This document shows positions 1,661 to 21,669 of a stretch of 23,510 nt of DNA, in pieces. The position numbers and the translations under genes are program-made. Within the stretch, counting starts at the first letter, position 1. Each line of letters begins with the position of its first letter. The notes below the pieces were generated by a model that saw only the letters and a program-made list of their open reading frames with translations, was not told the origin of the DNA and made no database searches. Source of the stretch: Promethearchaeota archaeon (lineage in GTDB: Archaea; Asgardarchaeota; Lokiarchaeia; Sigyniarchaeales; SOKP01); NCBI GenBank assembly GCA_011364925.1, contig RDOA01000054.1, positions 1 through 23,510 on the forward strand, written 5' to 3'.

Positions 1661-2674
1661 TTAATCGATTATAACTTCCTCATCGCTGGTTGATTCCTTT
1701 TTACTCGCTTTAGATTCGTCGAACGGAGTTTCACAAACCCAACACATATTCTCTAAATTAGACAAAGCGCTCGAACACTTATAACAATATAGTGTTTCGC
1801 ACTCAGGACAGACATATGTTAATCTCGAGATTCTGTTTTTACACACCAAACATAAACCTTTTTCTCTATACATTTTGACATCGTTTATGTTAATATTGAC
1901 AGGTCTCGTGAACATTTTAATTGTATCCTGAATTTCTTCTTTTCTAATTTCAGATTCTCTTTCTTGTCGTCTTACTACGCTAAAAATAATATAGACTGTG
2001 ACTAATATGAGTAACGATACCGATACTAATATAATAATAATACTCAATACATCTAACTGAAGATTGAAAACAAGCGTTAAGACTAAAAAGACTACAACGA
2101 ATCCAATTACAACAAAAATCACTATTCGAACAATGAGTTTATTAAAAAGCTCAAAATATCCAAAAAAGGGAGATAGTGTGATAAGAACTCCTATAGTCAA
2201 TAGGATAGGAGGAACAACTCGGGGAAATGGCGATACATTTTTTATGAAAAATATCTCTAATGCCCAACCAATCGAAAGAAGAATGTAACCTATTGCCATA
2301 ACGTATGAGATTGCTCGAGACTCGCGTTTTGACCTGAAAGAAGACCAAATATATATAACACATAAACCTAATAAGCTTATGAAATCAAACAGATATAGAT
2401 ATAAGTAGAAATATAATAAAATATAATTGTCAACATCATAAGTTTGGAAAATTGCGTCAATATTTCCCGTATAATATCCAGCTAAAAAATAGTCAATAAA
2501 ATAAAAGAAAATTCTTGTGAGCGCAATAAATAACCAAAAAACACCAAAGGCACGCATTAATACTTTCTCTTGCTTTTCTTCTCGGGACGATCCTCGATAG
2601 AAATAAAAGAAACTACACGCAATCAATAAAAATATAAAGAATGCAGAAAAAAATCGCTCGAAAGCATCGAACAT
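1661..2674 (-). CDS. Polytopic (about 7 TM) membrane protein with C-terminal C4C4 RING-like zinc finger
   Basis: Seven hydrophobic segments, a charged linker, then CLVC-x10-CPEC-x4-CYKC-x10-CWVC (1733..1852) and an acidic tail. Confidence 0.82.
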   Translation of the reverse strand: MFDAFERFFSAFFIFLLIACSFFYFYRGSSREEKQEKVLMRAFGVFWLFIALTRIFFYFIDYFLAGYYTGNIDAIFQTYDVDNYILLYFYLYLYLFDFISLLGLCVIYIWSSFRSKRESRAISYVMAIGYILLSIGWALEIFFIKNVSPFPRVVPPILLTIGVLITLSPFFGYFELFNKLIVRIVIFVVIGFVVVFLVLTLVFNLQLDVLSIIIILVSVSLLILVTVYIIFSVVRRQERESEIRKEEIQDTIKMFTRPVNININDVKMYREKGLCLVCKNRISRLTYVCPECETLYCYKCSSALSNLENMCWVCETPFDESKASKKESTSDEEVIID

Positions 2675-2791
2675 GTTAGATATTTCACCATTCTTAATTT
2701 ATTCAAAAAAAAATATAATGATTTTAATTATAATTCCTCATATATAAATAATTAAAGAATTTTATAATACTGACTCTCTTCTGGTTTGATA

Positions 2792-3805
2792 ATGAAAAAA
2801 AAAGCAATTTTTGCAATTATTTTAACAATAATTGTCTTTTTTAGCGGATTATTCACAATCCCGATCTCAATTTTAACTGAAAAATTTTTTGACTACGGTT
2901 TAATTAACGAAACCAGATCTTTCTACTATAGTCCAATTAATACCAATAATACGAAGGAATTAAATCTCAATATTGCTAAAAGTGAGGTTGTTATTAAATA
3001 CATTCACCCCCCTAATGCTTATGCAGCGAAAATAGAAGTCTTTTTCGAGATAAGTGGAGCAAACGCGTTAGGAAAATCTTACCAAACCTACTTTAACATA
3101 ATCTGGGAGAACAGTAGTTCTACTTTAAATTTTACTTTAGTATACAAAGCCGGTATTGACCCAATAGAAGCGATTTCTCTGTTCAGCAACATATCAATAA
3201 TTATATCATTAAGAGCTGATGTGACTTTTGATATTAATGCAATTATTAATGAAGGTAATTTTGATCTTTCAATCCCATTTATGGTCCCTATTAATAATAT
3301 TAACGTGAATCTAGATATTGGCAATATAGATTTGAATTATGTATCCTGCATTATAGGGGGTAATATCACTGGAAAAGTGAGATTAGGAAATATAAATTTT
3401 ATGGCATATAACGTACAGTTCACTCGCAATACAGCATGGAATCTTACAATTGACAAAGGCGATTTACTTTTTGACATTACTCAATATAAAGATATTGGTG
3501 CTAATGTGACTGGCGTAGGGGAGATTAATATAGGAGAGCTAAGAGTGCTTTACAAAGATTACAATCCAGACATAGGAGCGTTATTTATTTTCTATCACAT
3601 GTTTAATGTCGATGAGGATTATGTTGAGGGATTCAACATATTACCACCCGATATTGATGAAAGTCAATGGTGGCTAACTCGCTTTTTATTATATACTTTT
3701 GACTTTCCAGGTTTAAACTATTATAATATCTCGTTATATAAACTCAGTAGTAACCCTGATGCTCAATATGTCTACAATCTTTTAAACACTAACAGTACAA
3801 TATAG
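2792..3805 (+). CDS. Membrane-anchored or secreted beta-rich surface glycoprotein (DUF4097/adhesin-like repeats, tentative)
   Basis: MKKK plus a hydrophobic N-terminal helix (ATG 2792; alternative TTG 2786). Repeated GNFDL/GNIDL/GNINF/GDLLF/GELRV turns and about 10 N-x-S/T sequons. Confidence 0.65.
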   Translation: MKKKAIFAIILTIIVFFSGLFTIPISILTEKFFDYGLINETRSFYYSPINTNNTKELNLNIAKSEVVIKYIHPPNAYAAKIEVFFEISGANALGKSYQTYFNIIWENSSSTLNFTLVYKAGIDPIEAISLFSNISIIISLRADVTFDINAIINEGNFDLSIPFMVPINNINVNLDIGNIDLNYVSCIIGGNITGKVRLGNINFMAYNVQFTRNTAWNLTIDKGDLLFDITQYKDIGANVTGVGEINIGELRVLYKDYNPDIGALFIFYHMFNVDEDYVEGFNILPPDIDESQWWLTRFLLYTFDFPGLNYYNISLYKLSSNPDAQYVYNLLNTNSTI

Positions 3806-9022: not shown

Positions 9023-10282
9023 TTATGCAACTAGCACATCTTCTATTATTTTTAACGCCCAATCGATTTGATCTTTAGTAATTATTAAAGGTGGAGCAAA
9101 CCGTATAATTTTAGAGTGTGTATGCTTAGCTAGGACTCCTTTATCTTTCAACATTTGAACGATATGTCTTGCATCAGTATAAAACTCAATCGCCATCAAT
9201 AATCCTTTGCCTCTAACATCCTTTATGGGTACAATAGTTTCCTTTTTTGCTATGTTTTTAAGGCCTTCTAAGAAATAAGCGCCAAATTCCTTGGATCGTT
9301 GGGCAAGATGGTCATCAAGATGGACTTCAATTGCTTTTAAAGCCACAGCTGAAGCTAAAGGATTCCCACCAAACGTGCTTCCATGCGTTCCAGGCTTAAT
9401 GACATCGGGTCCAATAACATTTCTTGTAGAAACTACAGCCGAAACAGGATAAACGCCGCCACCTAAGGCTTTTCCTAGTAAAATTACATCAGGTTTCACG
9501 TTCTCATGGTCGCAAGCAAATAATTCTCCAGTTCTTCCAAATCCAGTTTGAATCTCGTCAGCAACCATCAAAACATTATATTTCGTACAAATTTCTCTAA
9601 TCTTTTTAATAAATCCTTCAGGGGGGACCTTAACCCCTGCTTCTCCTTGAACTGGTTCAAATAAGAAAGCCGCTACTTTCTCAGGTCCAACTTCCAGTAT
9701 CGTGTTTTCCAATGCTTCAGCGTCTCCATAAGGAATAGTGATAAATCCCGGAGTATAAGGACCAAAATTACCGTAATATCTGACGGCTTCAATATCGGTA
9801 CTAAAACCTACAATTGTGATTGTTCGACCATGAAAGTTACCTCGGCAGACAATTATTTTTGCCTCGTTTTTAGGAATCTTCTTTTTAATGTAGCCCCACG
9901 CTCTTGCGACTTTGAGACCAGAAGATACGGCTTCTGTTCCTGTATTCATGGGTAAAGCCATAATACCCGAATTGGTTGGGTCGTTTATGTGCGCTCCTAC
10001 AACTTCGCATAGTCTTTTTAAGAATGGTCCCATTTTATCGTTATAAAACGCGCGAGATGTTAGAGTTACTTTATCAGCTTGCTCTTTTAGCGCTTTTATA
10101 ATTTCTGGATGACAATGTCCTGCATTGTGAGATGAATAAGCAGATAAGCAATCCATATACTTTCTTCCTTCTGGATCGTAAACCCAAACTCCTTCTGCTT
10201 TAGAAATAACCACCTCTATTGGGTGATAGTTATGAGCGCAATATTTATCGTCCATTTCCATATAATCTTTTGAACTTGGCAT
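9023..10282 (-). CDS. rocD: Ornithine--oxo-acid aminotransferase (class III PLP)
   Basis: AHNYHP and LSAYS (OAT-specific tyrosines), FHGRT, EPVQGEAGV, DEIQTGFGRTG, GKALGGG (PLP lysine), HGSTFGGNPL and IRFAPPL. Confidence 0.93.
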   Translation of the reverse strand: MPSSKDYMEMDDKYCAHNYHPIEVVISKAEGVWVYDPEGRKYMDCLSAYSSHNAGHCHPEIIKALKEQADKVTLTSRAFYNDKMGPFLKRLCEVVGAHINDPTNSGIMALPMNTGTEAVSSGLKVARAWGYIKKKIPKNEAKIIVCRGNFHGRTITIVGFSTDIEAVRYYGNFGPYTPGFITIPYGDAEALENTILEVGPEKVAAFLFEPVQGEAGVKVPPEGFIKKIREICTKYNVLMVADEIQTGFGRTGELFACDHENVKPDVILLGKALGGGVYPVSAVVSTRNVIGPDVIKPGTHGSTFGGNPLASAVALKAIEVHLDDHLAQRSKEFGAYFLEGLKNIAKKETIVPIKDVRGKGLLMAIEFYTDARHIVQMLKDKGVLAKHTHSKIIRFAPPLIITKDQIDWALKIIEDVLVA

Positions 10283-10511: not shown

Positions 10512-11837
10512 ATGCGTATGAGTATTAACACTAAAAAAAAAGAAAAGGTACCTGAACACCACAAATTCACATCAGATTTTAATTCAGTCATATATATTGT
10601 TGTTTGGAACTCACTTGGATTTTTTTTTATTGAATATATTATGGCATACTTGATCAAACAAGTTTTAAATTATCCCGCTACTAACTTAGGTTTATTCTTT
10701 TCGTTTATCACGCTCGGAGGATTAATTAGTTCCAGTTTTATTGGATATTTGTCCGATCATTACTCCAAAAAACTCTTAGTTATGATTGGTTCATTCGGTA
10801 GAGGTGCTTCTTATTTCAGCCTTTACATCTCTATAATACTGCAATCTCTAATAGGAATGTATGTTAGTGCATTTCTCTTGGGTTTAGGTGCCAATATATT
10901 TTGGAATCCATTAGATACTATTATCTCCGATAAATCTTCGAAATATCACCGTTCCTCCGCATTTGGAAAGCGTAGGTTCGCGCTAGGTCTAGGTATGGTA
11001 ATCGGCACTATAGTAGGATTTGCTACATTTAGCACTGCAAATATACTTACACCATTTAATAATTTTATCGTATATGGCGCGATTCCAATATTTGGAATAG
11101 CAAACTTCTACGCAGGAATTCAATTTTCAAGAAAAGTGGATGAAGAGATAAAGTTTATTTATCCTAATGATATTGTAGACGATGATACATTATTGCAATC
11201 AGAAGTAGATACTACAAAACGATTGTCTGGAGCAAAGTACATGCGTATATATTTATTGGGGACTTTTTTGATATTTTTAGGATTATTCCTTAGCGCTATA
11301 AATGTCGGTTTATATCGTCCCTTTATTCAACCTTATGTTCTCGAGAACATCAACAGTGATGCTGGATTGGTTGCATGGTTTTATCTTCCTACTTCTATAA
11401 TCGGTTCTCTCATTGCTCCAAAATTAGGCACTATTGCAGACAAAATTAACCCTAATATTGCCATACTTGTTTCCAGCTTTCTTGGAGGAATAGTAACTTG
11501 GATGATTATTAACTCGGGAAATCTATGGTTCTTTGGTATATTCCTTGTCATAGATCAAACCATTATGCTTACTACGGGATTTGTAATGGTAAACGTCTTA
11601 AGCCGCGTTTCAATTAAGCATCGAGGGAAGATTTTTGGACTCATTACCTTTCTAGAATCGATCGGAATGATTGTAGGCCCTTTACTGGGAGGAATTGTGT
11701 GGGAGTCTATTAATCCGCAAGCACCTTTTATCATATCAATTATAGTTGAATGGTCTTTAATCCCATTTTTCATTTTAGGAATTTTAATTCTTAACCCATA
11801 TCTAGTTGAGTCAAAAGAAACTAAGGCTAATTTATGA
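10512..11837 (+). CDS. MFS transporter
   Basis: 12 TM in a 6+6 arrangement with a hydrophilic central loop; motif A GYLSDHYSKK and its repeat GTIADKINP; HRGKIFG and GPLLGG. Confidence 0.92.
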   Translation: MRMSINTKKKEKVPEHHKFTSDFNSVIYIVVWNSLGFFFIEYIMAYLIKQVLNYPATNLGLFFSFITLGGLISSSFIGYLSDHYSKKLLVMIGSFGRGASYFSLYISIILQSLIGMYVSAFLLGLGANIFWNPLDTIISDKSSKYHRSSAFGKRRFALGLGMVIGTIVGFATFSTANILTPFNNFIVYGAIPIFGIANFYAGIQFSRKVDEEIKFIYPNDIVDDDTLLQSEVDTTKRLSGAKYMRIYLLGTFLIFLGLFLSAINVGLYRPFIQPYVLENINSDAGLVAWFYLPTSIIGSLIAPKLGTIADKINPNIAILVSSFLGGIVTWMIINSGNLWFFGIFLVIDQTIMLTTGFVMVNVLSRVSIKHRGKIFGLITFLESIGMIVGPLLGGIVWESINPQAPFIISIIVEWSLIPFFILGILILNPYLVESKETKANL

Positions 11838-11896: not shown

Positions 11897-13216
11897 TTGA
11901 AAATCACAAATAAATATATTATAAACATAATCGTGGCCAATCTACTTTGGAGTTTCATTCCAATAGTAGCAACAGGTTTATTTAAAGATGTTTCAATTCT
12001 TACAATTCTTTTTCTGCGATTTTTAACAGCTGGAGTCATCTTGTTAATAATCTCAATTTTAATTGTATTGGTTAACAATTATTTACAACCAGAGAAAAAA
12101 ATTTCACTTAAAGCTTTATTTACAAATCTAAGGCATAAAAATAGACGTTTTTATAATGTAAGAACTTATAATTATTACTTTTTAATTGGTTTTTTCGGTA
12201 TTATTCTCCACATCTTATTCTATTTCCTTGCTATAAAAAAAACATCAATTCCATTTGCTATGGTGGGTATGTTAATGACAATAATTTTTATTTCCATTTA
12301 TGAAGAAGGAATGAATTACGAGAAGTTTGATGTATTTAGAATATTATTTATCATAATGTTAACATTTGCAATAATAATAATCGTTTTTGTATCTTTTCAA
12401 GGAGCAGAGTTATCTGGTTCACCAATAGAGCTACATGGATTTCTTTATCTGGTTTTATACGCTGTAACTGGATCATTTTTATATATTAGCATCGATCGGG
12501 ATTCCTTCTCCAAAAAAGAATTGCAGAACATTAATCTGAACAGATATTACAAAATTCCACGTGCACTAATTAAAATGTCGATTGCCTTTATCACCGGTGT
12601 TATAATCCTTATTCCCTTATCATATATTTTCATATTTCTACCTATTGATACAGATATAACTTACGAAGTAGAATCATTTTTCACCAATTTAACCAATATA
12701 GGTTCAATTCTTATTCGTTGGGAAATTATTTACCTTATTGTATTTGCCACCATTCTTCCTTACCTCCTTATTTTTCTTGCTAATGTAAATTGGAAATCCA
12801 CAAATTTGACTTACAGTCAGTGGAATAGCATCTTGGGATTAATCGATCCAATGAGTACATTAATTTTCTCAGTAATTTTAGTCAATCAATTTTTTCCACT
12901 TGAATATCTGATGATAGTTATTGTCTTGTTGGTCATAACAATCGTGTTTCGTTATGCTCACGAAGTAAAAAATGTGGTCCATGCATACATTTTTTTAAAA
13001 ATTAAAAAAGGATTTCTTAAAATTCTTTCACTGAAAATTTTAAAGTTTTACGGTGTAAGACAAATTGATTCGCTTATTGGCGACTATGATTTGCTTCTAC
13101 ACATAAAACTTAATTCTTTTAAAGACTTCAATAATTTAGTCAATAGAAAACTCAAATCGATAGAAGAAATATTGGATTTAGAAGTACAGTTTATTAATAA
13201 AATCGAAAAAAATTAA
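11897..13216 (+). CDS. DMT/EamA-family transporter fused to a C-terminal Lrp/AsnC ligand-binding (RAM) domain
   Basis: TTG start with AGGAG at 11882-11886. EamA patterns LLWSFIPI..FLRFLTAG, LFYFLAIKKTS, LIVFATILPYL and LIDPMSTLIFSVIL, about 10 TM. Residues about 361-439 (12977..13213) carry the AsnC C-terminal signature SLIGDYDLLL. Confidence 0.85.
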   Translation: MKITNKYIINIIVANLLWSFIPIVATGLFKDVSILTILFLRFLTAGVILLIISILIVLVNNYLQPEKKISLKALFTNLRHKNRRFYNVRTYNYYFLIGFFGIILHILFYFLAIKKTSIPFAMVGMLMTIIFISIYEEGMNYEKFDVFRILFIIMLTFAIIIIVFVSFQGAELSGSPIELHGFLYLVLYAVTGSFLYISIDRDSFSKKELQNINLNRYYKIPRALIKMSIAFITGVIILIPLSYIFIFLPIDTDITYEVESFFTNLTNIGSILIRWEIIYLIVFATILPYLLIFLANVNWKSTNLTYSQWNSILGLIDPMSTLIFSVILVNQFFPLEYLMIVIVLLVITIVFRYAHEVKNVVHAYIFLKIKKGFLKILSLKILKFYGVRQIDSLIGDYDLLLHIKLNSFKDFNNLVNRKLKSIEEILDLEVQFINKIEKN

Positions 13217-13229
13217 GTGAAGAGATAAG

Positions 13230-13469
13230 ATGAGAGCCATTATATTATGTAAGTTAGGAATAAATGTTATAAAGAAAGTAATTGAAGAAATTAAAGCTAT
13301 CCCTCAAATTAAAAAAGTAATGTCTTTGACGGGCGATTACGACCTACTTGCTGAGATAGAAGTTGAAAGCACTGAGGAACTATATGAAATCTTCTCTGAG
13401 AAAATAGATGTGATCGATGGGATTATTGCTTCTAACACTCATGTAGTTATGAAAGCATGGGAAAAATAA
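13230..13469 (+). CDS. Stand-alone Lrp/AsnC ligand-binding (RAM) domain protein, no HTH
   Basis: 79 aa with SLTGDYDLLAEI and IDGIIASNTHVV motifs; no N-terminal helix-turn-helix; starts 13 bp after the EamA fusion stop. Confidence 0.92.
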   Translation: MRAIILCKLGINVIKKVIEEIKAIPQIKKVMSLTGDYDLLAEIEVESTEELYEIFSEKIDVIDGIIASNTHVVMKAWEK

Positions 13470-13672: not shown

Positions 13673-15718
13673 ATGAACAAACGAAAATATATATTAATTG
13701 TAACAATTCTTTTATTTTCTATCAGTTTCCTATTCACTGCTATGCCTCCAGTCTATGCTGTAGAAGATGGACCGATTTTTGAAGATTTATGGGTTGATAT
13801 GGATGATGATGTAGGTTTATATACTAGAGTTTATCGTCCTGGTCCTGGAGCATACCCTGTAATTCTTACAAGAACGCCCTACGGGATAGCCGAACCAGGA
13901 GTAGTACCTGACCCCGATGATTTAACAGCATGGCCGCTTCAAGTTTCACACGGATACGCATTCGTAGAACAAGACACAAGGGGGCGGTATTCCTCAGAAG
14001 GAGTAGACCATCTGTTTTACGATGATGGACCAGATGGATATTCGACTATTGACTGGATTGCGTCCCAACCGTGGTGTAATGGTAAAATCGGCATGTCTGG
14101 AGGTTCAGCAACGGGAATAACCACCTACTTAGCTGCCGGGGAAAACCACCCGAATTTAGTAGCAGCGCTTTCATATGTAGCAAGTGCTAATCTCTATAAC
14201 GATGTTACTTTCGATGGTGGAGCTTTTCGTGCTGATTCTATGATTTGGACTTTCGGACAAACCGTAACTGGTCTTTCTATATCGCACATGCTTTCAGTTG
14301 CTCCTCCAACTTCATGGGTTGGCCATCTCACGGCTGTAGGCACTAGTTTATACGATATGTACACTCATACATCTTTGTCTCCCGGTTATCGAGCAGTCGA
14401 TTCACCTACATGGATGAATCTTCCTTTAATTGAGGGTAATATAGATTACAGCATAATGCAACCCTTTGGAGATGAGATACTAAGACACCCTAGTCAAGAT
14501 GCGTTTAGAGATAAGCTTAACGTTCAAGACACTATAGATATTCCTATTCTACATGTAGGTGGCTGGTTTGATTTTTTCTCTAGAAGCACATTAGATGCAT
14601 ATGTTAATTTACAACATTTAGGAAATCAAAAGTTCTTTATGGCTCCTGGAACTCATGGAGGTTTAGGCTCGTTACCTTACGATCCATATTATGATTGGTT
14701 TGATTATTGGTTGAAAGGAGAAGATACGGGAATAATGGACGAACCGGCTTTCGCTTATTATTGTTTTGGAGCCGAGGAGTGGCGTTGGGCCGATCAATGG
14801 CCTTTAGCAGATATCGATTATACTAAATTTTACCTACACGATGATGGGATATTGAACACTTGCCCATGGTCTTATGGAGCACCATACGAAAGCTATGTAT
14901 ATAACCCATTAGACCCTGTTCTAACGTGGGGCGGAAGAAATCTGGGTTTACCGGCAGGACCTAAGGATCAACGACCTGTTCAAGAAGGTAGGAGCGATAT
15001 TCTCTTCTATACCACTGATATTTTAAATGATGATACGGAGATTTCAGGTCCCGTTAAAGTACAACTAAGTGTTTCATCAAACTGTACGGATACAGATTTC
15101 ACTGCCAAATTAATTGATGTACATCCTGATGGAAGTACAATGTTAGTTCTAGATAATATACTTAGAGCTAGATACCGTAATTCCATGAGCAATCCTGTTT
15201 TAATGAAACCAAATAAGATTTACGATATTACAATAAACTTAGGAGACATTAGTTATGTATTTAAGGCTGGCCATCGTATTCAAATAGATATTTCTAGTAG
15301 TAATTTCCCAAAATATGATAGGAACCTTAATTCGGGAGGGGAGTTATATACAGAAACGGAAGCAGATATGAAAATGGCTTTAAATGAAATTCACCATCAT
15401 GGTAGGCATCGATCGTATGTAATACTTCCAATCATTACTCCAGAGACCAATGTATTTGAGGGTTGTGCAAACATAAAGATTTCTGGGTTAAAATACAAAG
15501 GTCCGGCTGAATTCTATATCTGTGATAATGCTGTCTTTCTACATTTTGATGATCAATGGATTAAATGGGACATCACTTATCATAGGAATTTCTGGCACAT
15601 GGATTATTATCGATGTAACGGTGATTTAGGAAAGTTAACTGTGACGAAAATAGTAACGAAGTGGGGAATTTATTTAAACGCAGCGGGACATCGAATCTCC
15701 TTTAGCGCAAAAGTATAA
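13673..15718 (+). CDS. Secreted CocE/NonD-family serine hydrolase (peptidase S15-like) with an extra C-terminal domain
   Basis: Signal peptide (MNKRK, hydrophobic stretch, VYA); RTPYG, QDTRGRYSSEG, QPWCNGKIGMSGGSATG (nucleophile elbow), GGWFD, PGTHG; PepX_C-type DTDFTAKLIDV and GHRIQIDISSSNFPKYDRNLN. Confidence 0.92.
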   Translation: MNKRKYILIVTILLFSISFLFTAMPPVYAVEDGPIFEDLWVDMDDDVGLYTRVYRPGPGAYPVILTRTPYGIAEPGVVPDPDDLTAWPLQVSHGYAFVEQDTRGRYSSEGVDHLFYDDGPDGYSTIDWIASQPWCNGKIGMSGGSATGITTYLAAGENHPNLVAALSYVASANLYNDVTFDGGAFRADSMIWTFGQTVTGLSISHMLSVAPPTSWVGHLTAVGTSLYDMYTHTSLSPGYRAVDSPTWMNLPLIEGNIDYSIMQPFGDEILRHPSQDAFRDKLNVQDTIDIPILHVGGWFDFFSRSTLDAYVNLQHLGNQKFFMAPGTHGGLGSLPYDPYYDWFDYWLKGEDTGIMDEPAFAYYCFGAEEWRWADQWPLADIDYTKFYLHDDGILNTCPWSYGAPYESYVYNPLDPVLTWGGRNLGLPAGPKDQRPVQEGRSDILFYTTDILNDDTEISGPVKVQLSVSSNCTDTDFTAKLIDVHPDGSTMLVLDNILRARYRNSMSNPVLMKPNKIYDITINLGDISYVFKAGHRIQIDISSSNFPKYDRNLNSGGELYTETEADMKMALNEIHHHGRHRSYVILPIITPETNVFEGCANIKISGLKYKGPAEFYICDNAVFLHFDDQWIKWDITYHRNFWHMDYYRCNGDLGKLTVTKIVTKWGIYLNAAGHRISFSAKV

Positions 15719-17377: not shown

Positions 17378-18175
17378 TCAATTTTCCCGCCTTCTAGAAA
17401 ATTTATCGTGAATTCCCGGATCTAAATACGGTTCTTTAGAATAGAGGATTTTAGTTCTTTTCTTTTTTAGTTCGTCAATTAGTGCGCCTTCAGTTAGCTC
17501 GTTAAGGTTTAATAATGTCCAACCATGAATACCTCCGCTTAATAAATCGTCTGGTTTATGCATATCAGTACCAGTGAGCATTCCAACTTCTCCTGCATGT
17601 TCCATACAAAAATCGTAGGATTCCTGATCAAACACATTTTCAGGTTGAGAATCGTCATTAACGATCTCAATAAAATCAACTCCCCATTCTAAAAGCGTTT
17701 CTCGGGAAGGATGATTTTCGTATTTAGCTTCAAATACACTCCATGGGATATGGTTACAGACAACAATTCCACCTTGATCGTGAGCCTTGTTAATAGCATC
17801 AATAATTTTTTCGTCTTTAGGTTTGTAAGGTACCCGTGATTCCCATTTTGAAATGCCTAAGAAATTCAAATGGATTCTAGTTGTTGTCCATTCAATCCCA
17901 CTAGTGATAAGGATACCTTTTTTAATGTATTCTTCCTTTACTTTCGTAATCTTCTCTATGTGCCGCATATTGTTGTGATCGGTTAGAGTTATAGCGTTGA
18001 ATCCCATAGCAATGTGCCATTCAACGTTTTGTTTGATTGTAAGCGCTCCGTCGCTATAATAAGTGTGAGAATGGTGGTCGTATATCACATTATAAGCTGT
18101 TTTATCATATGCCGGAGGAACATGAGGGTTAATATTCTTCCAATCGTCATCAGAATATCTACTTGAAGATGGCAT
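17378..18175 (-). CDS. PHP-domain metal-dependent phosphoesterase/hydrolase
   Basis: DHHSHTYYSDG, TDHN, GIEW..RIH, NHIP and GTDMH metal-ligand motifs. Confidence 0.88.
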   Translation of the reverse strand: MPSSSRYSDDDWKNINPHVPPAYDKTAYNVIYDHHSHTYYSDGALTIKQNVEWHIAMGFNAITLTDHNNMRHIEKITKVKEEYIKKGILITSGIEWTTTRIHLNFLGISKWESRVPYKPKDEKIIDAINKAHDQGGIVVCNHIPWSVFEAKYENHPSRETLLEWGVDFIEIVNDDSQPENVFDQESYDFCMEHAGEVGMLTGTDMHKPDDLLSGGIHGWTLLNLNELTEGALIDELKKKRTKILYSKEPYLDPGIHDKFSRRREN

Positions 18176-18190: not shown

Positions 18191-18979
18191 TTATTTGGAT
18201 TTTCGGTCGTAGAGCTCTTTTACAAAAAAAGTTGCTACGTGCTCCGAGAACGTATTTGGTCCGAAACCCGCATCGTATCCTAATTCTTTCGCAAGTTCGT
18301 TCGAGATACGAGGGCCACCGCAGATTAAAATAACCTTATCTCTAATCTCTTCTGCCTCCAGAAGGTCGACAAGGTTAGTCAAATTCTTCACATGAATATC
18401 TTTTTGGGTTACAGTTTGGGATACAAGAAGCACATCTGCTTTTAATTCTATGGCCTTTTTTACGAATGCTTCGTTAGAAACTTGACTGCCGAGATTATAC
18501 GCTTCAATCATTTCGAATCTTTCTAAACCGTAATGTCCCGCAAAACCTTTTCTGTTCATAATAGCGTCGATGCCAACTGTATGTGCGTCAGTTCCAGTTG
18601 TTGCGCCTAGAACAATCACTTTTCGGTCGAAATTTGTTTTGATATAACTATCAATTTCTTCCAAAGTCATCAATTCAACTTCTACAGATTCTATTTTGAT
18701 TCTTGTAAAATCGATCGAATGTCTTAAACTTCCGTACATTACGAAATATGTGAATCCTTTATCTAAAGGAGTATGGTATGCTACAGAAGGATATTCAATC
18801 CCCATCTTATTTGCTAATTCTAAAGCGGCATAAATTGCTTTTTCTCCATCGTTTACAGGAAGAGTAAAGCTAACTTGAATTTTTCCATCGTTCATTGTAT
18901 CTCCGTAGGGTTTGATTTTGGTTAAATCTAAATTCTTGTCAAAATCTTTCTTTTCTGTGAAATAAAGTCCGCCACCCAT
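18191..18979 (-). CDS. kamE: Lysine 5,6-aminomutase beta subunit (AdoCbl-binding)
   Basis: PYGDTMNDGKIQVSFTLPV dimerisation region; DAHTVG base-off/His-on motif; MNRKGFAGHYGLE (PLP lysine); LVSQTVTQKDIH and GYDAGFG. Confidence 0.96.
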   Translation of the reverse strand: MGGGLYFTEKKDFDKNLDLTKIKPYGDTMNDGKIQVSFTLPVNDGEKAIYAALELANKMGIEYPSVAYHTPLDKGFTYFVMYGSLRHSIDFTRIKIESVEVELMTLEEIDSYIKTNFDRKVIVLGATTGTDAHTVGIDAIMNRKGFAGHYGLERFEMIEAYNLGSQVSNEAFVKKAIELKADVLLVSQTVTQKDIHVKNLTNLVDLLEAEEIRDKVILICGGPRISNELAKELGYDAGFGPNTFSEHVATFFVKELYDRKSK

Positions 18980-18993
18980 TATATATTACCTCC
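18979..18993 (-). promoter_or_regulatory. Shine-Dalgarno site and TAATG stop/start overlap coupling kamD to kamE
   Basis: The minus strand reads GGAGGT-AATATA-TAATG; the kamD TAA shares base 18979 with the kamE ATG. Confidence 0.75.
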
Positions 18994-20562
18994 TAGTTGT
19001 AATTCTCTTGACATAAGTTCTAAAAAGGGATTAATGTAATCTTTACTCTTAAGAAAAACTCCGTCCAATCCCTTCCCTCCATCGATGGGTCTTTTTATCT
19101 GTGCAAAGATTCCTTTTTCAATTGTCTTGAATAATCCTTCTTTCTCGATATTCATCAGAAGGTTAACTGCATTGTTCAATACTTCACCTGCGCGTTTTTG
19201 TATCATTCCATCTTTCTTGAACTCGAGTTCGTCACCTAAATTCTTCATATTTTTAAAGATGTATCTTGCATTTTCTATGGAAAGCGCTCGATCTGACATA
19301 AAAGGGGTGTGAATAGCTTCTGTTAACATGCCCAGCAAGTGAATTCGTTGATTTGTAAGAATTGTAATCATGTTAAAGAGTGCATCTTGCACGTGTCCCT
19401 TAAAAATGTTGCCAGTCATGTATTTTGTTGGAGGCATGTATTTTAGTGGAGCGCTTGGAAAGATTTCCCGTGCCATTTGCGCTTGAGCAAGTTCAAAAAC
19501 AAATCCATTCTCCAAATCAGGATCCATCTCAAAAGCGTGTCCTAAACCCATTTGTTCCTGTTTTAAACCTGCTAGTTTTGCAAATTGTTCATTAATAAAT
19601 TGAGAAGCGAAGACTGTATGTGCTGCTTCGTAGGCGTCATCAGTGGTGAGATAATTATCCTCCCCAGTATTGATTATTACACCCGCATACGCATTTATCA
19701 TTCTTGAGAAATATTGATCAATCATCGTTCTTTGCATATTTATGTCTCTAAACAAGATCCCGTATAAAGCATCGTTTAACATCATATCTACTCTTTCGAA
19801 CGCCCCCATTGCAGCGATTTCTGGCATACAAAGTCCCGAGCAATAATTCGTTAGTCTAATATATCGCCCTTCTTCTTCGCTTACTTCGTCTAAAGCCGAT
19901 CTCATAAGGCGGAAATTTTCTTGTGTTGCGTAAGTTCCTCCAAAACCCTCAGTGGTTGATCCATAGGGCACATAATCTAACAAGCTTTGTCCAGTAGAGC
20001 GTATTACAGCTATAACATCTGCTCCCTGTCTAGCAGCAGCTTGAGCCTGAACCATATCTTCAAATATGTTTCCTGTTGCAACAATTAAATATATTAGGGG
20101 TTCTGTTTTTTCTCCGTATTCATTAATCATATCTTCTCTTTGTTGCTTGTTTCGCTCGATAATATCCAAATTTTTCTGTGTAATCGAAAAAAGAACCTCT
20201 TTTATCTCAGAGATCTCTTTTAAAGGGAACTCCGTTAAGTTTAATTGTCCTTGAGAGACTTTTTCGGCAATATTTTGGGGAGAGTTATTTGTGTGTAAGA
20301 TAGCATTTCCAAGGTAGAGTGCAATACCGTTGTTGAGAAGATCCGATTTGTGAATGTGATCTACTACAACATTAGGTAGTGGAACTCCAAACTCGTCTAT
20401 TCCATCGATCCCTAACAGTCTACAAATGGTTCTCTCAATCGAGACGGTGGAATGTTTGTCAATAAACTTTTGAGTGTCATTTGCTATTTTTTTAGCAATT
20501 TCCCTAGCCTTTTCGACCAAATTATAATCCAAATTTAACTTACTTCTTGGTTTCATTTCCAA
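18979..20562 (-). CDS. kamD: Lysine 5,6-aminomutase alpha subunit (PLP TIM barrel)
   Basis: IVATGNIFED, AVIRSTGQSLLDYVPYG, NYCSGLCMPEIA, NDALYGILFRDIN, INTGEDNY and KYMPPTK. Start is TTG 20562 or ATG 20556. Confidence 0.97.
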   Translation of the reverse strand: MEMKPRSKLNLDYNLVEKAREIAKKIANDTQKFIDKHSTVSIERTICRLLGIDGIDEFGVPLPNVVVDHIHKSDLLNNGIALYLGNAILHTNNSPQNIAEKVSQGQLNLTEFPLKEISEIKEVLFSITQKNLDIIERNKQQREDMINEYGEKTEPLIYLIVATGNIFEDMVQAQAAARQGADVIAVIRSTGQSLLDYVPYGSTTEGFGGTYATQENFRLMRSALDEVSEEEGRYIRLTNYCSGLCMPEIAAMGAFERVDMMLNDALYGILFRDINMQRTMIDQYFSRMINAYAGVIINTGEDNYLTTDDAYEAAHTVFASQFINEQFAKLAGLKQEQMGLGHAFEMDPDLENGFVFELAQAQMAREIFPSAPLKYMPPTKYMTGNIFKGHVQDALFNMITILTNQRIHLLGMLTEAIHTPFMSDRALSIENARYIFKNMKNLGDELEFKKDGMIQKRAGEVLNNAVNLLMNIEKEGLFKTIEKGIFAQIKRPIDGGKGLDGVFLKSKDYINPFLELMSRELQLGGNI

Positions 20563-20631: not shown

Positions 20632-21669
20632 TTAGTATTCACTAGGGCCTAGGTCATATATAGGGACGCTGATTCCTTTTTTCAATTCACTTAAAAATTT
20701 AGTTTTATTAAATTCGTATCCTAACGGCGACATAGGATTAATTGTAATCATGACTATTTTTATTTCGTTTAAAACTCTTATTACTCCACCTTTTTTTGAG
20801 TATTTGTCAAATGTTCTTTTACTTAAAAATAATTTTGTTGCATCAGGGATTAAAATTGTGATATTTTTATATATATCAGACTTTTTAATCAATTCCTCGA
20901 GAAAAAAATCCGTGATCGCACCATTTATTACGAGATATTTCGAAGTGCGATTAATGTGCGTCAAAATTTCTTCTACGGAATCTAATGCTGTTAAAATTTC
21001 TAAATTTTTTATTGAAAAATCACTATTTATAACCCCAACCTTTGCTTTAGATATAACCTTATTAGCTAACTTTATTACATCCATATTTTTTTCTTTTTTG
21101 AGTGTAAGTAAATTAAATGTGTGGTTAGTCAATTCAACTACTTTTTGCATATCCTTCGTAACTGAAGCTCCTGTTGAGAGAATTGTTGCGTTAGAAATTA
21201 GTGGAGTTGCGTAGGAACGCCTATCGAAAGCTCCATCGATTAAAACAAGGTTACATCCTAATTCAAGTAATTCATCACAGACACTTTTAATTTCTTTATT
21301 TGTGGATGGACCAGCAATCTCAATCAAGCCATTATTTAGCGATCGAACAAGTTGTATTTCACCCATCGGAGTATTGATTCCCGTTTCTTTTAATAGCTCT
21401 GATTTAAGGCTACTATTCCTTAAACTTTGAACAGCAGTAGCGATAATAGTTCCCGACTGAACCATTATTCGTGGCTTTGGAAGTTGAGTAATGGCGTCGT
21501 ATTCTTCACCATCGCGTCCAATCGAAGTTAAGCCAAGTTTCAGTTTTCCTTTTGAGAACTTAATAATGTGGTTTAAAGTCGTCGTCTTACTTACATTTTT
21601 TGAAAGACCTATTATTGAAATGACCTTATACTTATTAAGATCTGTAAAAACTTTATCTAAATCTTCCAT
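20632..21669 (-). CDS. kamB: KamB-like P-loop protein (putative lysine 5,6-aminomutase reactivase subunit)
   Basis: SIIGLSKNVSKTTTLN, GLTSIGRDGE, KPRI, TPMGEI, EIAGP and LIDGAFDR match my recollection of the protein encoded upstream of kamDE in lysine-fermenting bacteria. Its position next to kamD supports the call. Confidence 0.75.
   Translation of the reverse strand: MEDLDKVFTDLNKYKVISIIGLSKNVSKTTTLNHIIKFSKGKLKLGLTSIGRDGEEYDAITQLPKPRIMVQSGTIIATAVQSLRNSSLKSELLKETGINTPMGEIQLVRSLNNGLIEIAGPSTNKEIKSVCDELLELGCNLVLIDGAFDRRSYATPLISNATILSTGASVTKDMQKVVELTNHTFNLLTLKKEKNMDVIKLANKVISKAKVGVINSDFSIKNLEILTALDSVEEILTHINRTSKYLVINGAITDFFLEELIKKSDIYKNITILIPDATKLFLSKRTFDKYSKKGGVIRVLNEIKIVMITINPMSPLGYEFNKTKFLSELKKGISVPIYDLGPSEY

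Follow-up and report, generated by a model that had tools for sequence, protein, structure and literature searches.

A candidate amino-acid-gated transporter module of Asgard archaea, composed of a DMT carrier with a degenerate fused RAM domain and a stand-alone RAM protein

The window analysed in this work, a stretch of 23,510 nt from contig RDOA01000054.1 of a Promethearchaeota archaeon (assembly GCA_011364925.1), contains a DMT/EamA-type carrier gene whose product ends in a degenerate RAM domain, followed directly by a gene for a stand-alone RAM protein that retains the complete set of Lrp-type ligand contacts. We infer that the two proteins constitute a transporter gated by an amino acid and capped by a RAM hetero-oligomer, and to this proposal, which covers the pairing, the ligand, the gating and the direction of transport, we give an even chance. 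More specifically, the degenerate tail and the intact free subunit or subunits may form a gate through which an amino acid directly operates a DMT secondary transporter, with ligand sites split between the GxxD loop of the transporter and the S/T-x-T strand of the partner; for this arrangement we would put the chances slightly below even.

The fusion gene (11897..13216, plus strand) encodes 439 aa between a TAA stop and a TTG start, the latter in agreement with the N-terminus of the family consensus. Pfam assigned EamA (PF00892) to aa 6-163 (E 1.2e-9, 39 bits versus a cut-off of 28.2), detecting the first repeat only, and AsnC_trans_reg (PF01037) to aa 381-433 (E 3.2e-6, 27.4 bits versus a cut-off of 25). 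The AF2 model of the protein, computed with 87 sequences (pLDDT 90.4, pTM 0.88), displays ten TM helices, which make up the carrier domain (aa 1-359, 11897..12973), and TM10 (aa 335-359, 12899-12973) enters the strand of residues 361-369 of the fused RAM domain (aa 361-439, 12977..13213) without a linker, a junction that is rigid in the model. VIA-align with the model of a 73%-identical orthologue gave Z scores of 21-23 to SLC35B1, TPT, PfCRT, Vrg4 and LicB and of 19.2 to YddG, and Foldseek with the model of the window's own protein led to the same DMT families. The carrier thus shares its fold (Z 19-23) with the 10-TM DMT carriers, among them YddG, the EamA/RhtA exporters, LicB, SLC35/Vrg4 and TPT, as well as the Pfam EamA match, but it differs from ordinary members in its very divergent sequence, the fused cytoplasmic sensor-type domain and the obligate small partner gene. 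The RAM domains are modelled in the order beta-alpha-beta-beta-alpha-beta and superimpose on DM1 and FL11 with rmsd values of 0.9-1.5 A (Foldseek, VIA-align), those of the tail being 1.0-1.5 A. The residues most conserved among distant members of the family are E142 in loop 4-5, W299 and W309 in loop 8-9, and R352, Y353 and E356 at the end of TM10, all of which are predicted from the model to lie on the cytoplasmic face, on the same side as the RAM domain.

The stand-alone RAM gene (13230..13469, plus strand) begins after a spacer of 13 nt (13217..13229) and in a reading frame different from that of the transporter gene. Its 79-aa product is a RAM domain alone (AsnC_trans_reg, E 1.1e-16, 60.9 bits versus a cut-off of 25), with TTHA0845, FL11 and DM1 as sequence matches in the PDB. 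BLASTP aligned the last 79 aa of the transporter with the free protein at 27% identity over 66 aa (E 3e-7), and the ungapped identity of 19/79 was equalled in 0/20,000 shuffles. The free protein has the Lrp-type backbone contacts G35 and D38 in its GxxD loop (13332-13343) and S68 and T70 in the S-x-T-H strand that ends with H71 (13431-13442), while the fused tail keeps only the GxxD loop (G395 at 13079-13081, D398 at 13088-13090) and has L428 and V430 at the S/T-x-S/T positions (13178-13186). Further contrasts between tail and free protein are IGDYD versus TGDYD, LEVQF versus SNTHV, and HIKLN versus EIEVE. An HTH was found by Pfam in neither protein. The initial annotation, made from the letters alone, had described the EamA-RAM fusion with an adjacent RAM protein 13 bp downstream, the gapless 79-aa alignment, the missing DNA-binding HTH in both proteins, and Thr residues in the free copy replaced by Ile and Val in the fused one, all of which is borne out here; its hand counts of charged residues, 14 K/R versus 9 D/E in the tail and 10 versus 14 in the free protein, are exact. 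An HTH is missing from just two of the 10 RAM matches in this genome, the tail and its neighbour, and 8 HTH-bearing Lrp-type genes are present. A frame of 335 aa on contig C70 was considered as a second stand-alone RAM gene and rejected, as it is an HTH-bearing Lrp-type regulator. The Lrp-type regulator at 72745-73731 of that contig (G000:C70; L084:446-1432, minus strand) is unusually long, with 328 aa and extra N-terminal HTH-like segments preceding the AsnC-type HTH and the RAM domain.

We found 166 homologues of the fused protein, nearly all of 434-444 aa and 55-86% identical, in independent assemblies that bear the names of Lokiarchaeota, Promethearchaeota, Hermodarchaeota and Hodarchaeota MAGs. 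An exhaustive phmmer search with the fused protein over 1.84 billion representatives returned only 78 matches, many of them full-length at 21-30% identity, and did not reach ordinary EamA proteins, suggesting a small distinct family. PF01037 was detected in 29/38 and PF00892 in 22/38 distant family members. Where a distant member bears a name, it is that of Promethearchaeota, of Ca. Harpocratesius or, once, of a Spirochaetota bacterium; among the most distant ones (P0149, P0155, P0171), those with names are all Promethearchaeota. With a family HMM, about 95 out of 400 Asgard genomes gave a full-length match, a count in which related genomes do not weigh as independent samples. These matches come from the majority of genera in the window's own family, from the remaining families of the order and class to which it belongs, and, outside that class, from a single further family; the rest of the phylum gave RAM-only matches. 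A profile search with the alignment of the distant members reached no other phyla and returned only already-known Asgard proteins, and the ESM Atlas suggests putative look-alike clusters in Thermoplasmatota. The scan of the genome contigs with a single protein had found only 5 loci.

Gene neighbourhoods were surveyed for 77 unique fused genes (L001-L083), with P0149, P0155 and P0171 lying outside the survey. Throughout the clade of the window, every locus has one free RAM gene, or two in some lineages, directly downstream on the same strand, with spacers from -4 to 124 nt in orthologous loci, while the other neighbours vary between loci. The gene pair, whose conservation the initial annotation had proposed to examine, is strictly kept in this clade down to 22-30% identity, and the apparent exceptions are contig ends or mis-called starts. 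An adjacent free RAM gene is missing in seven loci of two paralogous subfamilies (L053, L054, L047, L044, L046, L049 and L050), of which L053, L054 and L047 are second copies in genomes G135, G137 and G138. The genomes of one partnerless subfamily do carry small RAM genes elsewhere, and in two of the seven loci an Asp/Glu-racemase-like gene comes next. In one group of partnerless loci, with the racemase-like gene next, the Asp of GxxD is lost as well (LGRYG, FGRVG).

The pairing of the tail with the free RAM protein is suggested by a natural fusion, by a tree and by a structural model. The Spirochaetota homologue P0140 (541 aa) carries a tail-type RAM domain right after TM10, then a basic linker of about 35 aa and a free1-type RAM domain that keeps R-S-H, and its gene is followed by a free2-type RAM gene. 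Since both partners are joined here in one chain, P0140 provides a Rosetta-stone argument for association of tail and free RAM. The 541-aa tandem-RAM protein is encoded on a JGI metagenome contig (L007:4001-5897), an identical protein being named Spirochaetota; the bacterial locus may have arrived by transfer. The tandem-RAM locus resembles a three-gene Asgard-type locus in which the first two genes are fused. In the tree, all free RAM domains form one clade (support 95/87), within which the second RAM domain of P0140 nests, and the Asgard tails fall outside. The free and the tail subtrees follow the same family structure, implying joint inheritance of the pair from a time before the divergence of these orders. 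As the two genes of the window lie in different frames, a read-through model was made on L070, a 73%-identical orthologue with an in-frame spacer, by reading the stops as Gly and folding a single chain with 24 similarly paired rows and fused-only rows. In this model (pLDDT 88.4, pTM 0.83) disorder is confined to the linker, both RAM domains have a lengthened last strand, and the tail and free RAM adopt the canonical RAM dimer arrangement, although the 12-residue tether and AF2's prior for RAM dimers favour such a dimer, and the model does not distinguish a heterodimer from a tail-tail homodimer. The hetero-oligomeric sensor cap put forward in the initial annotation is partly supported, P0140 and the read-through model both favouring an association of tail and free RAM.

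The same findings bear on a sequestration or transceptor scheme, in which the tail would capture or release the free RAM protein according to the transport state, and the freed protein would join Lrp-type regulators and alter transcription. DM1 makes hetero-octamers with full-length FL11, the 8 HTH-bearing Lrp-type genes of the genome offer potential partners, and GlnK is sequestered at the membrane by AmtB (PMC10710835). However, the free RAM gene is strictly linked to the transporter gene and to no Lrp gene, the modelled rigid TM10-RAM junction suggests coupling to the carrier, and the free1-type RAM domain of P0140 is covalently tethered to the transporter and thus unable to shuttle, which weakens the scheme. 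We consider it improbable.

The two RAM types differ in their ligand-binding residues. In the complex of Grp with glutamine, the amino group of the ligand is held by D102 of the GxxD loop, and the carboxylate by T132 and T134 from a subunit of the neighbouring dimer (PMC2504300). The free RAM proteins carry GxxD in 72/75 and [ST]x[ST]H in 58/75 cases, the others retaining at least the second hydroxyl; in the partner-bearing Asgard tails [ST]x[ST]H occurs in 0/69, the strand reading LEVQF, IEILF or VKILF, and GxxD is retained. Of the two partners, only the free subunit has the complete amino-acid-binding motif. With the strand motif confined to the free RAM proteins, all carboxylate-binding hydroxyls would come from the soluble subunit, and the tail could contribute just the amino-binding loop. 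Judged by sequence, this split fits composite sites across tail-free interfaces, the alternative for GxxD in the tails being retention for structural reasons. The two types also differ in charge, with means of +5.2 for the tails and -3.7 for the free RAM proteins, and in 66 pairs the tail is basic in 60/66 and the free protein acidic in 64/66. The pattern of a basic tail and an acidic partner holds across these pairs, although the basicity of the tails could come from membrane proximity or positive-inside bias.

A purely structural role would explain part of this picture, the RAM tail and its partner then serving as an oligomerisation or stability module, for example by covering a dimerisation surface that would otherwise be sticky, without any part in sensing a ligand. 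The tails have lost one half of the ligand site, certain RAM proteins either do not bind amino acids or bind different metabolites (PMC2995911), and there are paralogues without an adjacent free RAM gene, some lacking even GxxD. On the other hand, the free RAM proteins retain the entire ligand-contact motif despite deep divergence, and the tails of distant members keep G395 in 97% and D398 in 82% of cases, which is hard to explain without ligand binding; a structural role of this kind is in our opinion improbable.

The closest structural match of the two-domain assembly raises the question of an enzymatic role. Residues 357-529 of the L070 model superimpose on the pseudo-dimer of the siroheme decarboxylase NirDL with Z 17.2 and an rmsd of 2.6 A over 162 aa, and NirDL and AhbAB likewise contain two Lrp-like RAM units in a hetero- or pseudo-dimer (Z 17 for the tail-plus-free model). 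By this likeness, and given a hydrolytic stand-alone RAM protein reported from P. furiosus, the pair might be a dimeric alpha+beta barrel enzyme that acts on or handles the transported compound. NirDL and AhbAB, however, are an enzyme type with HTH-like domains and no membrane part, the similarity amounts to fold plus 14% identity, the sequence affinity of the pair is with ligand-binding Lrp-type RAM domains, and the positions it conserves are the contacts of the amino-acid backbone, so that we regard catalysis as very improbable. The last concern, raised in the initial annotation itself, that the fusion arose through an error of assembly or a frameshift, has next to no probability and is refuted by the same single ORF, free of internal stops, across hundreds of independent assemblies, closed genomes among them, by the homologues, the distant full-length members and the spread over Asgard genomes described above, with no point found in its support.

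Returning to the amino-acid-gated transporter with a RAM cap, we propose that the two-gene module would work as a ligand-gated secondary transporter. The tail, which lacks the Thr/Ser half of the pocket, would be the docking and transducing subunit, and the free RAM protein, with the whole pocket, would pair with it under the transporter as a canonical RAM dimer or a dimer of dimers. A cytoplasmic amino acid, with Lys, Orn and other basic or omega-amino acids as candidates, would bind at the RAM interfaces and change the geometry of the oligomer, and the carrier would be locked or released as this change is transmitted by the rigid junction at TM10 and by the conserved loops on the cytoplasmic side. 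The outcome could be either trans-inhibition of uptake or the opening of an overflow exporter. Precedents exist in that RAM dimers form higher oligomers in a ligand-dependent manner, and the stand-alone DM1 and FL11 assemble into ligand-dependent hetero-octamers (PMC2995911); in the module proposed here, the carrier would take the place of the HTH-bearing partner of DM1-type assemblies.

Compared with known systems, the module shares its domain, by Pfam and fold, with the Lrp/AsnC regulators and stand-alone RAM proteins (FL11 and DM1 of P. horikoshii, Grp of S. tokodaii and TTHA0845 of T. thermophilus), and its free protein resembles Lrp-type RAM domains in the retained GxxD and T-x-T ligand contacts. 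Likewise, DM1 and FL11 provide a documented case in which a stand-alone RAM protein forms hetero-oligomers with another RAM-bearing protein. Unlike the Lrp/AsnC regulators, the module has no N-terminal HTH, the partner is a membrane carrier instead of a DNA-binding protein, and one of its two RAM types is systematically degenerate. By analogy, the logic resembles that of the MetNI C2 domain in methionine trans-inhibition, of ModBC, and of the AmtB-GlnK and SbtA-SbtB pairs, where the transporter is locked by a small ferredoxin-like regulator that responds to a metabolite of the cytoplasm; glnK-amtB is a conserved gene pair too, a likeness of analogy and not homology. The module differs from these systems in the class of transporter, in its fused-plus-free hetero arrangement, and in the fold of the sensor, which is neither that of MetN C2 nor that of PII, the window's partner being a RAM domain according to Pfam and hence outside the GlnK-AmtB type. 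On our reading of these analogies, the module would be a case of transporters controlled by cytoplasmic sensor domains, which is a known kind of control.

Important amino-acid exporters as well as the SLC35 family belong to the DMT carriers, and the mechanism, if true, would represent an undescribed form of control for this class and the first ligand-gated DMT carrier. It would also give stand-alone RAM proteins their first physiological role, the strictly conserved partnership with a transporter providing a concrete, testable job for them, and the division of one ligand site between two subunits, of which the fused one is degenerate and the free one intact, would be an unusual allosteric design. 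Lokiarchaeia-type Asgard archaea live by fermenting amino acids and peptides, and the module, being widespread among them, may control a central nutrient flux; as Asgard archaea are the closest prokaryotic relatives of eukaryotes, this would bear on their physiology. In the literature consulted we found no paper linking EamA/DMT proteins with RAM domains, whether fused or stand-alone, in line with the initial annotation, to which no characterised EamA-RAM fusion was known. Known EamA-Lrp links are confined to transcription, as in the control of PA2576 by PA2577, and a 2023 review of post-translational transporter control mentions no case that involves DMT, EamA, Lrp or RAM proteins (PMC10710835).

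The neighbouring genes provide some indication of the possible ligand. The window is AT-rich and carries Ras-family GTPase, JAB and ThiF genes, and within it the pair is flanked by an MFS transporter gene (10512-11837), which lies between a class-III aminotransferase gene (rocD-like; 9023-10282, minus strand) and the pair, and by a gene for a putatively secreted S15 peptidase. The latter, an S15/X-Pro dipeptidyl-peptidase of the CocE/NonD type (13673-15718, plus strand) with an N-terminal signal or anchor segment, is probably an extracellular peptidase. Besides the aminotransferase, genes for the lysine 5,6-aminomutase kamDE (18191-20562, minus strand), a gamma-glutamyltranspeptidase (GGT), AOR and a peptide-binding protein are found near the pair, with a PHP-domain protein (17378-18175, minus strand) encoded between kamE and the gamma-glutamyltranspeptidase in one co-oriented gene string. 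Three further ORFs of 337-345 aa, at 1661-2674 (minus), 2786-3805 (plus) and 20632-21669 (minus), have no Pfam match at E 0.001. Within the same archaeal family, the aminotransferase gene stands divergently upstream of the pair in 13 loci and kamD downstream in 9, in genomes that are related. These neighbours give only a hint of basic or omega-amino acids, and Lys, Arg or Orn as the ligand is likewise only hinted at by the neighbouring kamDE and class-III aminotransferase genes. A protein combining an alpha/beta-hydrolase with a membrane part adjoins the pair in 11 loci of the same family, and the window's S15 peptidase was rejected as an orthologue of that protein from L001, L003 and L008 (best E 0.18). 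The alpha/beta-hydrolase-membrane protein (L001:1970-3931, L003:5669-7639, L008:6090-7961) has 620-656 aa; its N-terminal portion is an alpha/beta-hydrolase and its C-terminal portion a multi-TM region.
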